Made by a program: the position numbers and the translations under genes. The notes under the pieces were generated by a model. The model was not told where the DNA came from. It made no database searches and saw only the letters and a program-made list of their open reading frames with translations. From an uncultured Actinomycetes bacterium (lineage in GTDB: Bacteria > Actinomycetota > Thermoleophilia > UBA2241), in assembly GCA_963767005.1 (NCBI GenBank), contig CAVYCN010000002.1, positions 345,272 to 409,271 of the forward strand: 64,000 nt of DNA, given 5' to 3'. This document shows positions 5,594 through 49,415 of the stretch, piece after piece; position 1 is the stretch's first letter, and each line of letters begins with the position of its first letter.

Positions 5594-5622
5594 TTGACCG
5601 CGCCGCCGCGCCGGTCTAGAGT
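5594..5622 (+). promoter_or_regulatory. putative sigma70-type promoter of the pyr operon (TTGACC-17 nt-TAGAGT)
   Basis: Hexamers read directly in the intergenic region between rluD and pyrR. Confidence 0.4.
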
Positions 5623-5629
5623 CGTGAAA

Positions 5630-5722
5630 ACCTTTAAGTCCAGGTCCGAGAGACCGGAAAGGGGTGCTTCATGACGCACCGTGCCAGCAGGTCCGCCGCC
5701 CACTCCGGGGCGGTGTTTTTTT
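5630..5722 (+). promoter_or_regulatory. PyrR-binding attenuator leader with intrinsic terminator
   Basis: GUCCAGGUCCGAGAGACCGGAAAGGG resembles the PyrR binding-loop consensus (UCCAGAGAGGCU). It is followed by hairpin CCGCCC-ACUCCG-GGGCGG plus U7 (about 5693..5722), immediately before the pyrR ATG. Confidence 0.65.
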
Positions 5723-6301
5723 ATGTCTGAACGCGGCGACAGGGTCGTTATGACCGGCGAGCAGCTCGGCCGCACGGTCACCCGCATGGCCCACGAGATC
5801 CTCGAGAAGAACTCCGGCCAGGAGCGCCTTGCGGTGGTCGGTATCCACACGCGCGGCGCCTACCTGGCGCGCCGCCTGCACGCGATCCTGTCGGACATCG
5901 CGGGGCGTGAGCTGCCGCTCGGCGACCTCGACATCTCCTTCTATCGCGACGACGTCGCGGCGCGCGGCGCCTGGGGAGTGGTGCCGGCGACGCCCAACCC
6001 GGTCGTCAAGAGCAGCGACCTCGCTTTCGAGGTCGACGGCGCTACGGTGGTGCTCGTCGACGACGTGCTCTACACCGGACGCACGATCAAGGCCGCGATC
6101 GACGCCCTGTTCGACTACGGCCGGCCGTCTCGCGTGCAGCTCGCCGTCCTCGTCGACCGCGGTCATCGCGAGCTGCCGATCAGGCCCGACTACATCGGCA
6201 AGAACCTGCCGACGGCGCGCAACGAGCGCATCGCCGTGCACCTCTCCGAGGTCGACGGCTCAGACGAGGTCGTGCTCGAGAGCCCGGCCGGGGAGGAATG
6301 A
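5723..6301 (+). CDS. pyrR: bifunctional pyrimidine operon regulator / uracil phosphoribosyltransferase PyrR
   Basis: PRTase fold with PRPP-binding motif VVLVDDVLYTGRT. It is the first gene of the pyr operon. Confidence 0.9.
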   Translation: MSERGDRVVMTGEQLGRTVTRMAHEILEKNSGQERLAVVGIHTRGAYLARRLHAILSDIAGRELPLGDLDISFYRDDVAARGAWGVVPATPNPVVKSSDLAFEVDGATVVLVDDVLYTGRTIKAAIDALFDYGRPSRVQLAVLVDRGHRELPIRPDYIGKNLPTARNERIAVHLSEVDGSDEVVLESPAGEE

Positions 6302-43793: not shown

Positions 43794-44444
43794 ATGCGTG
43801 AGCGGCAACGACGCAGTCTATCGCCGGACTATCCGGCGCGACCGCGGCGCGCGGGTCGGCCAGCCGAGGTTCGCGGCCGTGACAAACCGGGTGCGCCCGG
43901 TCGCGAACCCAGCCGGCGGCTCTTCGTCGCCTGCGACCTGCCGCTGGCGGCGCTCGCCGCCGTGACCGACTGGCAGGCCCGCGAGCTCGCGCCGCGCGAC
44001 GACCTGCGCCTGAACCACAGCCTGCACCTGACCCTCTGCTTCCTGGGCGCGGTGCCCGAGCGCCGCGTCGACGACGTCGCCGCGGCGCTCGCCGGGCTCG
44101 ACCTGCCGGCCCTGCCGAGCGGGCTCGGCGCGGCGCTGTTCCTGCCCGAGCGCGGCCTCAAGCGGGTGATGGCCCTGGCCCTCGATGACCCCACCGGGGC
44201 GCTCGTCGCGACCCAGCGTTCCGTCTCCGAGGCCCTGTACCATCTCGGGGTGTACGCGCCTGGGAAACGCCCCTGGCTGGCCCATCTGACGGTGGCTCGC
44301 TTCCGCCGTCCCGGTCAACCTTTTTCGCTGCAAAACGTGAACATCGCGCCGTTTGGACTGCCCTCGGTCATCCTGTATGCTAGCGTCCTGGAGCGGGGTG
44401 GGGCAGTCCACACGCCCCTTGCCACGTTTCCCACCTCAGCCTGA
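43794..44444 (+). CDS. thpR: RNA 2',3'-cyclic phosphodiesterase (2'-5' RNA ligase LigT/ThpR family)
   Basis: Two H-x-T-x motifs (HSLHLTL and AHLTVARF) of the 2H phosphoesterase fold. The ~40-aa basic N-terminal extension suggests the true start may lie downstream or be non-canonical. Confidence 0.7.
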   Translation: MRERQRRSLSPDYPARPRRAGRPAEVRGRDKPGAPGREPSRRLFVACDLPLAALAAVTDWQARELAPRDDLRLNHSLHLTLCFLGAVPERRVDDVAAALAGLDLPALPSGLGAALFLPERGLKRVMALALDDPTGALVATQRSVSEALYHLGVYAPGKRPWLAHLTVARFRRPGQPFSLQNVNIAPFGLPSVILYASVLERGGAVHTPLATFPTSA

Positions 44445-44462
44445 CGAGAGGAGCACGCCACC

Positions 44463-45554
44463 GTGGATAAAGACAAGGCCCTCGAAGCCGCCGTCACCCA
44501 GATCGAGCGCCAGTTCGGCAAGGGCAGCATCATGCGCATGGGCGAGCATGCCGCCGCGGCCGACCTGCAGACCGTGCCGACGGGCTCGCTCGCCCTCGAC
44601 ATCGCGCTTGGCGTCGGCGGCATCCCGCGCGGGCGCATCGTCGAGATCTACGGGCCCGAGTCATCGGGCAAGACGACCCTCGTCTACCACCTCATCGCTC
44701 AGGCCCAACGTCTCGGGGGCGTCGCCGCCTTCATCGACACCGAGCATGCCATGGACCCCAACTACGCGCGTACCATCGGGGTCAACGTCGACGATCTGCT
44801 GGTCAGCCAGCCCGACTACGGCGAGCAGGCGCTCGAGATCACAGAGATGCTCATCCGCAGCGGCGCCATCGACATCGTCGCGATTGACTCGGTGGCCGCG
44901 CTCACGCCGCGGGCCGAGATCGAAGGCGAGATGGGCGACAGCTTCGTGGGCCTGCAGGCGCGGCTCATGAGCCAGGCGTTGCGCAAGCTGGCCGGCACGC
45001 TCAGCAAGTCGGGCACCATCTGCGTCTTTACCAACCAGCTCCGCGAGAAGATCGGCGTCATGTTCGGCAACCCCGAGACCACGACCGGTGGCAAGGCGCT
45101 CAAGTTCTACGCCACCATCCGGCTCGACATCAGGCGCATCGAGACCCTCAAAGAGGGCACTGAGGCGGTCGGCAACCGGGTACGCGTGAAGGTCGCCAAG
45201 AACAAGGTGGCGCCGCCCTTCAAGCAGGCCGAGTTCGACATCATGTACGGCACCGGCATCTCGCGCGAGGGCACGCTGCTCGACCTCGGCGTCACCGCCG
45301 ACGTCGTGCACAAGAGCGGCGCCTTCTTCAGCTACAACGACGACCGCCTCGGGCAGGGCCGCGCCGCCGCGCGCGCGTTCCTGCACGACAACCCCGACAT
45401 CGCCGACGACATCGAGCGCCAGATCCGCGACCGCGCCGGGCTGCCCGCGGCGCCTGCACCGGTCGCCGCCGCGGGCGCCGACGGCAAGAAGTCGGCCGCG
45501 GCGGCGCTCGCCCAGGCCGAAGCCCAGGCCGCCGCGCCCGACGCCGAGCGGTAG
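44463..45554 (+). CDS. recA: recombinase RecA
   Basis: Near-textbook RecA (GPESSGKTT Walker A, L1/L2 loops, [16 protein letters not shown]) with an Ala-rich C-terminal tail. Confidence 0.97.
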
Positions 45555-45573
45555 CCGGTCGCCGGGGCCGTCG

Positions 45574-46218
45574 GTGCCCACCGTCACGGCTCTCAAGGCG
45601 ACTCGGCGCGGCCACGTCGCGATCCACGTCGACGACGCCTTCGTCGCGGCGGTAGGCGACGCGTTCGTCGTGCGGCACGGTCTGTTCGTCGGCCTCGAGC
45701 TCGATGCCGCACGGCTCGACGAGCTCGTCGCCGCCGCCGGCGTCGAGCGCGCGCTCGCCGACGCCTACCGCCTGCTGGGCCATCGCGCCCGTTCCCGTAC
45801 CGAGCTCGCCGAGCGCCTGCGCGCCAAGGGCCATCCCGAGCCCATCGTAGCCGGCGTCGTCGAGCGTCTCGTCGCCGAGGGCCTGCTGAACGACCCCGCC
45901 TTCGCGGCCGCGTTCGTCGCCGACAAGCGCCGTCTGGCCGGCTGGGGCGCCGGCCGCATCGCTCGCGAGCTCGCGCGCCACGGCGTCGCCGACACGATCG
46001 CGCAGGCCGCCCTGTCCGGCTCCGGCGACGACGCCGACGAGCTCGCCCGCGCCCTGCAGGCGCTGGCCCGTCGCGGCCCGGCGCGGGCGCCCCTCGACGC
46101 CGCCCGCAAGCGCGCCTACGACTACCTGCTGCGGCGCGGCTACTCGACCGCCGTGGCCTACCGTGCCGTGCGCGACTGGTCGGCCGCGGCCGCCGGTTCG
46201 GGCCAAGTCACCGATTGA
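45574..46218 (+). CDS. recX: regulatory protein RecX
   Basis: Three-repeat helical RecX fold (RSRTELAERLRAKG...AAAFVADKRRLAGWGAGRIAREL) directly downstream of recA. Confidence 0.8.
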   Translation: MPTVTALKATRRGHVAIHVDDAFVAAVGDAFVVRHGLFVGLELDAARLDELVAAAGVERALADAYRLLGHRARSRTELAERLRAKGHPEPIVAGVVERLVAEGLLNDPAFAAAFVADKRRLAGWGAGRIARELARHGVADTIAQAALSGSGDDADELARALQALARRGPARAPLDAARKRAYDYLLRRGYSTAVAYRAVRDWSAAAAGSGQVTD

Positions 46219-46248
46219 CAGTGCCTTCGAGGCGAACCTACAATCACA

Positions 46249-46267
46249 AGTGAGCAGCTTGCTCACT
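46249..46267 (+). terminator. hairpin (AGTGAGC-AGCTT-GCTCACT) 30 nt after recX stop
   Basis: 7-bp perfect stem read directly, followed by a weak U-containing tract (gacTTTgcg). Confidence 0.35.
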
Positions 46268-46497
46268 GACTTTGCGTATGACTGTGGCACCTGAAGGCCA
46301 TGCATTCCGGTCCTAGGCGGCCGGCCTGTCGAACGAGCGACGTAGGGGTCTCACACAACGTAGGGAGCTTTTCGAGAGCACTTCCGGGCTTTCCCCGAAG
46401 CCGCACGTCAAACGACTGCAAAGATGCTCAAAGAACCGCGTGAGTGCCGGTAGGCACCGCGGCATGGCACCGTCAGGGACGACGACCGTACGAGAGG

Positions 46498-46522
46498 CCG
46501 GGCGAGTTGCCCGGCTTTTTTC
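46498..46522 (+). terminator. canonical rho-independent terminator (GCCGGGC-GAGTT-GCCCGGC + TTTTTT)
   Basis: Perfect 7-bp GC stem plus U6, located inside the recX-rny intergenic region 54 nt upstream of the rny ATG. It terminates whatever is transcribed across the ~250-nt lower-GC segment before it. Confidence 0.7.
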
Positions 46523-46575
46523 GTCTCATTTGACGTGACGTCGCAACTGACGATCACCGGCACAAGGGGACCAGC

Positions 46576-48105
46576 ATGACCGCAGTGTTCATCGTGATCG
46601 CGCTCGCCGCCGGCGTGGCGGCCGGATACCTGGTCAGGCGCTATCTGGTCGACAACCGGGTGAAGGGCGCGCAGGGCGAGGCGCAGCGCCTGCTGCGCGA
46701 CGCCCAGCGCGAGGCCGAGGCCACCGTCAAAGAAGCCCGCCTCGAAGCCAAAGAGGAGCTCCACAAGGTGCGCACCGAGGTCGAGAACGACCTGCGCGAG
46801 CGACGCCTCGAGCTCAAGAACGCCGAGGATCGCGCCGCCCAGCGCGAGGAGCAGCTCGAACGGCGGGCGGCCGAGCTCGAGCGCCGCGACCAGCAGGTCT
46901 TCGAGCGCGAGGAGCAGGCCGCCGCTCTCACCGAGCAGCTCAAGGTCGCGCAGGCCGAGCAGGCCGCCGCCCTCGAGCGCATCTCGGGCCTGACCGGCGC
47001 CCAGGCGAAGGAGATGCTCCTGCGCAAGATCGAAGAAGAGGCACGGCACGACATGGCCCGCCTCGTGCGCTCTATCGAGGACGAGGCCAAGCGTGAAGCC
47101 GACCGGCGGGCCCGCAACATCCTCTCGCTGTCGATCCAGCGCACCGCCGCCAACCACGTCGCCGAGACCACGGTCTCGGTCGTGCCGCTGCCCTCCGACG
47201 ACATGAAGGGCCGCATCATCGGCCGCGAGGGGCGCAACATCCGCGCCCTCGAGAACCTGACCGGCATCGACTTCATCATCGACGACACGCCCGAGGCGGT
47301 CGTGCTGTCGGGCTTCGACGGCGTGCGGCGCGAGATCGCCCGCCTCACCATCACCAAGCTGCTCGCCGACGGCCGCATCCATCCGGCCCGCATCGAGGAG
47401 ATGTACGGCCAGGCCAAGGCCGAGATCGACGCGACCATCGAGGAGGCCGGCGAGCAGGCCTGCTTCGACGCCAACGTGCACGGCGTGGCGCCCGAGCTCG
47501 TCAAGGTCCTCGGCCGGCTCAAGTTCCGCACGAGCTACGGCCAGAACGTGCTCAACCACTCGGTCGAGGTCGCCCACCTGGCCGGCATCATGGCGAGCGA
47601 GCTGGGCGCGAACCCCAAGATCGCCCGGCGCGCCGGCCTGCTGCACGACGTCGGCAAGGCGATCGATCACGAGGTCGACGGCTCCCACGGCCAGATCTCG
47701 GCACAGCTCGCCCGCAAGTACCGCGAGACTCAGAGCGTCGTGCACGCGATCGAGGCGCACCACCAGGACGTCGAGCCGCAGACCGTCGAGGCGGTCCTGG
47801 TGCAGGCCGCCGACGCCATCTCGGCCGCCCGCCCCGGCGCCCGGCGCGAGACCCTCGAAGGCTACGTCAAGCGCCTCGAGTCGCTCGAGAAGATCGCCGA
47901 GAGCAAGCGCGGCGTCGAGAAGTCGTATGCCATGCAGGCGGGCCGTGAGGTGCGCGTCATGGTCAAGCCGGCCGAGATCAGCGACGACGATGCCGTGCTG
48001 CTCGCGCGCGAGATCGCCAAGGAGATCGAGGAGACGCTCGACTACCCCGGCCAGATCAGGGTGACCGTCATCCGCGAGAGCCGCGCCACGGAGCTCGCCA
48101 AGTAG
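46576..48105 (+). CDS. rny: ribonuclease Y
   Basis: N-terminal TM, coiled coil, KH domain ([15 protein letters not shown]) and HD domain (LHDVGKA). Confidence 0.95.
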
Positions 48106-48116
48106 GAGCGGTCCAC

Positions 48117-49415
48117 GTGCGCACGTTCTATCTGCGGTCGTTCGGCTGCCAGATGAACGACCACGACGCGGAGCGTATCTGCGCGCTCCTCGAAGCGGAT
48201 GGTCTCGTCCGGGTGTCGCGCGTCGACGACGCCGACGTCATCGTCTACAACACCTGCACGGTGCGGCGCAGCGCCGACGACCGACTCGCCGGCCACCTGG
48301 GCGAGGCGGCCCGCGTCAAGGCGCTCGACCCGGCGCGGGTGGTCGTCGTCGCCGGCTGCCTGCCGCAGGTCGAGCGCGAAGGCCTCTTCGAGCGCTTTCC
48401 GTTCGTCGACGTGGCCCTTGGACCGCAGCACCTGGCCGAGCTGCCCGACGCCCTGCACGCCTGCGGGCAGCGCGGTTACTTCGACGGCGAGGGCGGGTTG
48501 TCGAGCGCTCTGCCGGCGCACCGCGAACGCGCGTTCCAGGCCTGGGTCCAGGTGATGTCGGGCTGCACGAACTTCTGCTCGTACTGCATCGTGCCGGCCG
48601 CGCGCGGGCCCGAGCGCAGCCGTCCCCTCGACGACGTGATCGCGGAGGTGCGCACCCTCGTCAGCGACGGCGTGCTCGAAGTCACGCTGCTCGGACAGAA
48701 CGTGAACGCCTATGGCAACGACCTGACGGTGGCAGATCCGCCGACGTTCGCCGCCCTGCTGCGCAGGCTCGACGGGCTCGCCGGCCTGCGCCGCGTGCGC
48801 TTTACGACCTCGCATCCGCGTGACCTGTCCGACGAGCTCGTCGCTGCCATCGCCGAGCTGGCCACCGTGTGCGAACACGTGCACCTGCCGGCGCAGTCCG
48901 GCTCTGATCGCGTGCTTACCGCCATGGGCCGTGGGTATACGATGGAGTGGTACCTGGGGAGGGTCGACGCCTTGCGTGCAGCGGTGCCGGACATCGCGAT
49001 CACCACCGATCTCATGGTCGGCTTTCCCGGCGAGACCGACGCCGACTTCGACGATACGATGACCCTGGTCGAGCGCGCCGGCTTCGACGCCGCCTTCACC
49101 TTCGTCTACTCGCCCCGGCCGGGCACACCGGCGGCGGCGTTGCCCGACCCCGTCGCGCCCGACGTCGCTCGCGAGCGTATCGTGCGCCTCGTGGGGGCGA
49201 CGCAGGCGCAGAGCGGGCGCCGGCGGGCCGCGGTGGTGGGTTCGACCGTCGAGGTCCTGGTCGAGGGCGAGAGCCGGCACGGCCGGTTGTGGCGCGGCCG
49301 CACGCGGCAGAACGTGACCGTCAACTTCGCGGGCACGGCCGCGCCCGGCGAGCTCGCGCCGGTCCTGGTCACCGCCGCGACGTCGACCACGTTGAGCGGC
49401 CGGCGCGTCACCTGA
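48117..49415 (+). CDS. miaB: tRNA-i6A37 methylthiotransferase MiaB
   Basis: MTTase N-terminal domain (SFGCQMNDHD), radical SAM CxxxCxxC (CTNFCSYC) and a TRAM domain. Confidence 0.85.
   Translation: MRTFYLRSFGCQMNDHDAERICALLEADGLVRVSRVDDADVIVYNTCTVRRSADDRLAGHLGEAARVKALDPARVVVVAGCLPQVEREGLFERFPFVDVALGPQHLAELPDALHACGQRGYFDGEGGLSSALPAHRERAFQAWVQVMSGCTNFCSYCIVPAARGPERSRPLDDVIAEVRTLVSDGVLEVTLLGQNVNAYGNDLTVADPPTFAALLRRLDGLAGLRRVRFTTSHPRDLSDELVAAIAELATVCEHVHLPAQSGSDRVLTAMGRGYTMEWYLGRVDALRAAVPDIAITTDLMVGFPGETDADFDDTMTLVERAGFDAAFTFVYSPRPGTPAAALPDPVAPDVARERIVRLVGATQAQSGRRRAAVVGSTVEVLVEGESRHGRLWRGRTRQNVTVNFAGTAAPGELAPVLVTAATSTTLSGRRVT

Follow-up and report, generated by a model that had tools for sequence, protein, structure and literature searches.

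A conserved structured leader RNA with a predicted intrinsic terminator upstream of the RNase Y gene in uncultured Thermoleophilia-type Actinomycetota

In many Gram-positive bacteria mRNA decay is initiated mainly by RNase Y, whose dosage must therefore be tightly held. To our knowledge only one mechanism by which the enzyme regulates its own synthesis has been worked out, that of Bacillus subtilis, and it operates without transcription termination. Considered here is what stands before the RNase Y gene, rny, in an uncultured Thermoleophilia-type actinomycete, within a 64,000-nucleotide (nt) stretch of contig CAVYCN010000002.1 (GenBank assembly GCA_963767005.1, positions 345,272 to 409,271) that is called the window below, coordinates being counted from its first letter. 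The 357-nt gap between recX and rny (46219-46575) holds a conserved and structured RNA element, linked to rny wherever it has been found and ending in a strong GC hairpin with a U-tract shortly before the gene. The reading favoured here, with a probability of roughly 0.55 on what the sequences offer, is that this 5' leader is a transcription attenuator of rny which, on termination, would yield a small RNA (sRNA) of ~270 nt.

In B. subtilis RNase Y autoregulates via a 164-nt 5' untranslated region (UTR) together with the first 100 nt of the open reading frame (ORF), through cleavage by RNase Y and subsequent trimming by RNase J1, and the same account gives rny a sigma-A promoter and mentions no terminator (Korobeinikova et al. 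2023, PMC10303841). An earlier note on the present DNA had called such autoregulation plausible but undescribed, and is corrected by that paper. The two leaders are alike in serving the same gene from a sigma-A/sigma-70 promoter through a long untranslated stretch. However, that of B. subtilis, needed for feedback by the enzyme, is 164 nt long, AU-rich and controlled by cleavage, whereas that of the window is ~325 nt long and GC-rich, with a junction fold and a textbook terminator. No published rny leader motif, riboswitch or premature terminator was found in the full-text literature, where searches brought up the B. subtilis paper on autoregulation and otherwise nothing related.

Other ribonuclease leaders, and one structured RNA of a different kind, provide looser parallels. 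The pnp gene of Escherichia coli autoregulates, and Weinberg et al. are said to have described in 2010 an Actino-pnp motif, a conserved actinobacterial leader RNA with a presumed autoregulatory function that precedes a ribonuclease gene; that gene encodes PNPase, the structure is different and the window has no Rfam match to it. E. coli 6S RNA (ssrS) is a structured non-coding RNA directly upstream of ygfA, with which it is co-transcribed in conserved synteny. It resembles the window's element in being a structured RNA placed directly before a protein gene in conserved synteny but differs in shape, a rod with a central bubble as against a branched junction, and no RF00013 match is obtained even at E = 10. 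We know of no terminator in the E. coli rne leader. That leader, 361 nt long, contains a stem-loop to which RNase E binds in regulating its own synthesis, as the work is cited in PMC10303841. The corresponding family, rne5 (RF00040), resembles the window leader in that a long, structured 5' UTR precedes the gene for the endoribonuclease chiefly responsible for starting decay; it belongs, however, to another enzyme family, and the window leader does not match RF00040. A comparison with Rfam, proposed in the earlier note, gave no family: at gathering scores Rfam 15 had no match anywhere in the 64-kb window, and a permissive scan of 46100-46700 (E up to 10) returned nothing beyond chance-level matches owed to the terminator (SorX, Bp1_162). 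The element resembles ribonuclease leaders and terminator attenuators, yet it is outside any described family.

Anatomy of the leader unit

Judged from its letters, the unit runs in the order promoter, 5' hairpin P0, ~230 nt of folded RNA, terminator, 54-nt spacer and rny, all on the plus strand. The gene served (46576-48105; 509 amino acids) carries the Pfam domains RNase_Y_N, KH_1 and HD, and its homologues are named ribonuclease Y. What defines the unit, and was absent from the earlier note, is a sigma-70-type promoter, TTGACA-N18-TACAAT (46215-46244; -35 box 46215-46220, -10 box 46239-46244), which matches the consensus at 11 of 12 positions, is the sole such site in 5 kb (0.1 expected) and is one of two strong promoters of this type across the 64 kb. 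The recX stop codon, TGA (46216-46218), sits inside the -35 hexamer, so that the end of recX overlaps the start of the rny transcription unit, and this embedding is kept in relatives (L002, L161 and others). From the position of the -10 box, with a start 5-7 nt past it, the transcription start site is predicted at ~46249-46251. This is the foot of P0, the 5'-terminal hairpin GUGAGCA-GCU-UGCUCAC (46250-46266, or 46249-46267 with a flanking A-U pair).

The minimum free energy (MFE) of 46250-46525 is -119.7 kcal/mol (z = -3.36), and none of 200 dinucleotide shuffles is as stable. Framing the fold, in both MFE and RNAalifold predictions, is P1, a long-range helix of three segments in which CGUAUG (46275-46280), CCUGA (46290-46294) and GCCAUGC (46297-46303) of the 5' strand (46275-46303) pair respectively with CGUACG (46487-46492), UCAGG (46473-46477) and GCAUGGC (46462-46468) of the 3' strand (46462-46492), its outer end lying 4 nt before the terminator stem. 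Enclosed by P1 are the junction J1/2 (AUU in the window; consensus CAC-YCC) and hairpin P2, which together occupy 46304-46324 and in which CCGGUC (46307-46312) pairs across a loop with GGCCGG (46319-46324). Domain II (46326-46420), a long irregular hairpin by RNAalifold on nine sequences with a domain at the equivalent place in the MFE folds of diverged members, contains an invariant block CUGUCGAACGAGCGACGUAGGGG, a repeated ACGUAGG and a hairpin GGCUU-loop-AAGCC (46387-46402). The last is conserved and is the better drawing of what had earlier been taken for a CGGG/CCCG hairpin. The two copies of ACGUAGG (46339-46346 and 46358-46365, ~20 nt apart) are conserved in the close group, and where they sit the diverged leaders have a GGGAG/GGAGG purine motif, either singly or in two copies; such elements might bind protein or act like Shine-Dalgarno (SD) sequences. 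The region 46410-46461 has an A-rich linker CAAACGACUGCAAAGAUGCUCAAAGAACC and then, within 46437-46461, a hairpin GUGCC-GGUA-GGCAC. It is the most variable part of the leader in both length and sequence (alignments A2 and A3), and the GUGCC stem-loop, though it does exist as the earlier note held, with the loop GGUA, is confined to the window and one relative (L001).

The predicted intrinsic terminator, GCCGGGC (46497-46503)-GAGUU-GCCCGGC (46509-46515) followed by U6 (46516-46521), has a stem of 7-8 base pairs, seven of them G-C, with a hairpin energy of -14.9 kcal/mol for the core and -16.8 kcal/mol with a flanking pair. It stands 54 nt upstream of the rny ATG at 46576. Canonical terminators number only ~5 in the 64 kb by a custom scan, used in place of a generic one that had missed this hairpin, we think through greedy stem extension pairing GAGAGG with the U-tract. 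Both this hairpin and the recX-proximal one had been picked out in the earlier note, and both are present, the coordinates given for the terminator having been 1-2 nt off.

Beyond the terminator come the spacer and ribosome-binding region (46522-46575), with the SD sequence AAGGGGA at 46564-46570. Just before the rny start the 17-mer UCACCGGCACAAGGGGA (46554-46570) is invariant in all nine close homologues; the spacer ahead of it shows free variation. Around the start codon the sequence GCAUG matches part of the P1 3' strand (GCAUGG) and could compete for the P1 5' strand, the duplex z-scores for this being unconvincing. As to sequestration of the ribosome-binding site more generally, the close group does have a consistent partner for it, the P1b-P2 region, with z-scores of -2.5 to +0.7 that are likewise unconvincing.

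A promoter scan of 44000-49000 gave the one site at 46215-46244 and thus nothing promoter-like between the terminator and the rny ATG of the window, nor was any conserved TANNNT or -10 box seen by eye in the corresponding spacers of homologues, which are short. Since no promoter intervenes, rny would be transcribed only by read-through, which would make the terminator act as an attenuator, and RNase Y would apparently be produced only by way of polymerases that pass it. In composition the unit stands apart as had been noted, with a GC content of 0.59-0.61 over 46175-46550 as against 0.69-0.83 in recX and rny (72% for the whole window). The further remark that it holds no plausible ORF is borne out too, as the sole notable one (46300-46443, 47 amino acids) is unique to the window.

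Conservation and covariation among relatives

Relatives were drawn from three sources: the matches listed when GTDB species genomes were scanned with the Rny protein (L001-L080), the matches listed from a metagenome scan with the N-terminal 240 residues of Rny (L081-L160), and twelve graded relatives of 78-94% Rny identity from a protein search plus exact-protein look-ups (L161-L172). The plan of the unit is repeated before rny in some 25 related loci of Thermoleophilia type, among them L001, L002, L081-L085 and L161-L172. A promoter TTGACN-N17-19-TANNNT lies 290-370 nt before the start codon, its hexamers kept in all homologues and its spacer length varying; there follow a 5' hairpin, 210-260 nt, a GCCGGGC-N4-6-GCCCGGC hairpin (GCUGGGC in L171) and, usually, a U-tract, with 29-62 nt from the terminator stem to the rny ATG.

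How strongly the segment is held can be gauged against L001, from which the window differs little in the gap (93% identical over its full length). At third codon positions the flanking genes, all on the plus strand, are 80% (recA, 44463-45554), 74% (recX, 45574-46218), 85% (rny) and 76% (miaB, 48117-49415) identical. The non-coding segment therefore evolves more slowly than synonymous sites, which points to purifying selection. In L166 the place of recX is taken by a divergent arginine-deiminase-type gene and the leader unit is intact, so that the element travels with rny and not with recX. Indeed the leader is linked to rny in the same orientation at every locus found, even where the RNA has diverged too far for simple alignment. 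Conservation in relatives had been named beforehand in the earlier note as the point on which its idea could fail, and the architecture does recur before rny, with covariation.

Within the close group there is little variation, and RNAalifold on the nine sequences (alignment A2) recovers P0, P1, P2, domain II, the A-rich linker and the terminator. P0 is invariant there or changed on one side only, and every diverged member has a 5' hairpin as well. Independent MFE folds of these members give the same architecture of P1, P2 and a second domain. P1 appears across lineages as, for example, GCCAUGC/GCAUGGC, GAUGC/GCAUC, CGAUAC/GUAUCG and AGAAA/UUUCU, and P2 as CCGGCC/GGCCGG, GGCGCC/GGCGCC, CGGCGC/GCGCCG, CGACAC/GUGUCG and GGCACUC/GAGUGCC, while the junction strands keep GCAC-YCC and ACCGYA. 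With one representative per lineage, cognate P1 strands pair with a mean of -20.9 kcal/mol and non-cognate strands with -15.7 kcal/mol (Mann-Whitney p = 0.001).

The diverged members are not reliably alignable by MAFFT, and MAFFT with RNAalifold on all 19 leaders gave only the 5' hairpin and the terminator, the alignment being too poor for more. A covariance model, R1 (224 positions, 63 pairs), was accordingly built from the close group, and with it 15 sequences were aligned (A5). In A5, an alignment fitted to the model and so one that inflates pairing statistics, 93.8% of cells are standard pairs as against 85.2% in shuffles (reached by none of 500) and 35-43% when partners are slid, and 21 pairs have changed on both sides as against 10.3 +/- 2.3 in shuffles (again none of 500); of the 18 P1 pairs, 15 have so changed. 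The leader is the only place in the 64-kb window that R1 matches, and the model gives no match away from rny in the collected loci (which were gathered around rny) and no significant match upstream of rny in the collected Firmicutes loci.

The terminator behaves otherwise. Its 7-bp core is unchanged in all 15 aligned homologues, whereas P1 and P2 covary freely, and the U-rich tail is retained in most homologues and degraded in L164/L165 and L170. Relaxed to the pattern GCCG[AG]G[CT]-N3-8-[AG]C[CT]CGGC, the hairpin is found in 27 of 158 loci at a distance of 15-160 nt ahead of the rny start, and only seven times in the remaining 746 kb on the same strands. The 27 take in leaders otherwise unrelated to that of the window (L086-L088, L091 and L096; the Peptococcaceae metagenome-assembled genome L015; L108). 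That the hairpin persists where the U-tract is degraded or absent suggests a role for it beyond termination.

Attenuator, small RNA or something else

If the leader is an attenuator, the near-consensus promoter on the recX stop would initiate an RNA whose first nucleotides fold into a protective hairpin, P0, and whose next ~230 nt form the junction of long-range P1, hairpin P2 and the second domain. Directly past P1 the strong GC hairpin and U6 would halt most polymerases, with release of a leader RNA of ~270 nt, and rny mRNA would come only from those that read through, so that the terminator would set or regulate its amount. The folded domain would then be, we think, the sensor or decay-control part of a feedback loop. 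Who the effector is can be approached only speculatively. By analogy with the published 5'-UTR-dependent autoregulation of B. subtilis rny and of E. coli rne, the most likely would be RNase Y itself, binding or cleaving the leader, and the A-rich linker and the hairpin-adjacent segment may be its candidate sites.

That terminator-based leaders are used in this genome is indicated by the window's only other promoter-leader-terminator unit, which is PyrR-type. The second strong promoter of the window, TTGACC-N17-TAGAGT, belongs to a unit at 5594-5722 (plus strand) before a gene at 5723-6301. About 75 nt past that promoter stands a canonical terminator, CGCCGCCC-ACUCCG-GGGCGGUG-U7, and the phosphoribosyltransferase gene follows at once. 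The best Rfam match of 5627-5721 is RF00515 (PyrR binding site), at 27.4 bits, which is below the gathering score of 54 (E = 0.043), and this leader probably represents a pyr attenuator that has diverged. Both units comprise a promoter, a structured leader, an intrinsic terminator and, directly after it, a regulated gene. However, PyrR leaders are ~100 nt long with a known protein-binding loop and a defined antiterminator, whereas the rny leader is ~270 nt long and has neither a known binding motif nor a detected antiterminator.

Several considerations tell against attenuation. As a candidate antiterminator, the best upstream partner of the terminator 5' arm pairs no more strongly than its counterparts in shuffled leaders (mean z = -0.23); that partner is often P2, at sub-positions that are inconsistent and not above chance. 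Since the same test also misses the pyrR leader, which served as a positive control, this negative result is weak. The hairpin is kept with a degraded or absent U-tract in L164/L165, L170, L118 and L066. The covariation figures carry the inflation mentioned above, and reverse-strand R1 matches at the same loci reach up to 30 bits, so that the 17-35 bits of the diverged members rest as much on position and orientation as on score. Finally, a stable sRNA would look just the same, with its strong promoter, hairpin at the 5' terminus, complex fold and strong terminator.

This last point leads to the serious rival, in which a stable, independent sRNA of ~270 nt would act in trans, for instance by binding or sequestering a protein as 6S does, with rny fed by leaky read-through of a constitutive terminator. 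It is possible, if on the unlikely side, and the two readings are not mutually exclusive. In its favour are the near-consensus promoter, the hairpin where the transcript is predicted to begin, the strength of the terminator and the invariance of its stem, a complex conserved fold that keeps its junction nucleotides (GCAC-YCC, ACCGYA), and the failure to detect an antiterminator. The ~64-fold enrichment of B. subtilis rny RNA on RNA polymerase in RNA immunoprecipitation sequencing (PMC11077062) hints, as a lead only, at a link with the polymerase. Against it stands the strict same-orientation linkage to rny at every locus found, including those with diverged RNA and the one without recX, and as rny appears to have no promoter of its own the RNA would belong to the rny transcription unit anyway. 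Identity with 6S or Ms1 was considered and rejected: neither these nor other sRNA family models match even at E = 10, and the consensus shape, a multi-helix junction and not a rod with a central bubble, is wrong for 6S. A bolder extension of the favoured reading would make the leader an RNA devoted to sensing the cell's capacity for RNA decay. Recognition of the junction and of the invariant GCCGGGC/GCCCGGC hairpin, whether by RNase Y or by RNA polymerase, would couple leader termination and decay to the level of the enzyme, a homeostatic device mechanistically distinct from those of B. subtilis and E. coli. We regard this as distinctly improbable, albeit in keeping with a hairpin that recurs before rny in distantly related lineages and outlasts its decayed U-tract.

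Should one think instead of a new class of riboswitch, with a metabolite or second messenger at the junction choosing between terminator and antiterminator? A conserved, covarying multi-helix junction directly upstream of a terminator, with the outer P1 ending 4 nt before its stem, is what one would look for. But the riboswitch-type leader that the earlier note had entertained predicts a mutually exclusive antiterminator, and none is conserved in the (low-power) test. Among the collected loci the motif is found before one gene only, whereas a riboswitch class as a rule serves several genes of one pathway; there is no match to an Rfam riboswitch, and no metabolite is obviously tied to RNase Y. 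The chance of such a switch appears slim. Slimmer still is that of ordinary intergenic DNA, with the hairpin as terminator of the recA-recX operon, the promoter simply that of rny and no functional RNA between them. As there is no terminator between recX and the hairpin, recA-recX transcripts would indeed end there too, and long 5' UTRs are common for rny. The order is nevertheless wrong, the promoter being ~250 nt upstream of the terminator with nothing promoter-like after it, and this reading is largely refuted by a gap that surpasses synonymous sites in conservation, a fold that covaries and a locus, L166, that keeps the unit without recX. Least credible is that an ORF from the AUG of GCCAUGC (46300) is translated, as a leader peptide controlling the terminator or as a small protein. 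From this AUG, in sequence homologous to 46300-46345, eight of the nine close homologues (L001, L081, L161-L163, L167-L169) retain a 14-codon ORF, MHSGxxGRPVERAT, and in L162 two compensating 1-nt indels preserve its frame. The window itself, though, is frame-shifted into 47 unrelated residues. In diverged members, read by eye, the ORF is absent or has 5, 6, 11 or 33 codons; the SD-like GAAGG is just 2 nt from the AUG; the ORF ends ~150 nt short of the terminator; and where its codons are conserved they overlap helices P1b and P2 and an invariant RNA block. That the 14 codons are coding is thus unlikely. All told, the earlier note, in proposing either an sRNA or a terminator-based leader of RNase Y, had named the right pair for what is a conserved structured RNA tied to rny; its observation is confirmed and its interpretation partly supported.

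Other rny leaders and the control of RNase Y

Leaders of other builds stand before rny elsewhere. A second type, ~370 nt upstream of the gene in L086, L087, L088, L091, L096 and L004, has a consensus promoter and a GCCGRGC/GCYCGGC terminator but other internal blocks (GAUAAUCGGUCGACGA; GACCUUGC...GCAAGGU). Its terminator is followed by ~100 nt, with a conserved CCCAACCA-GCGGCGGUGACG block ahead of the SD sequence. Among Firmicutes, a canonical terminator lies 25-100 nt before rny and downstream of a predicted sigma-A promoter in L033, L039 and L050 (Christensenellaceae-type) and in L015, L016, L021, L023, L035, L067 and L108; the leaders of L033 and L050 share the conserved GUAAUCCUGCACUCUUAUGGUGUGUUCAUAAUAGAU. 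In several Clostridia unrelated terminators stand 25-65 nt before rny, again downstream of a predicted promoter. Solirubrobacterales (L062, L068, L072, L076 and L078, the last being the cultured strain Solirubrobacter phytolaccae) have, ~300 nt upstream of rny, a different conserved block, GGUACUACGAU...AGCGAACGAAUGGCC-loop-GGCCA...AAACACCAGCAAAUC...GGAUUCCGGAC.

Long leaders are, then, general for rny, and terminator-containing ones are recurrent. Given the hairpin in distant lineages and the unrelated terminators of Clostridia, terminator-containing rny leaders may be widespread but overlooked. For the uncultured soil and sediment Thermoleophilia-type Actinomycetota that carry it, a conserved, covarying leader of ~270 nt that includes its own terminator suggests that RNase Y is controlled at a second level, that of transcription, and it would extend by one candidate the short list of leader RNAs that sense ribonucleases, exemplified by those of rne, pnp and rnc.

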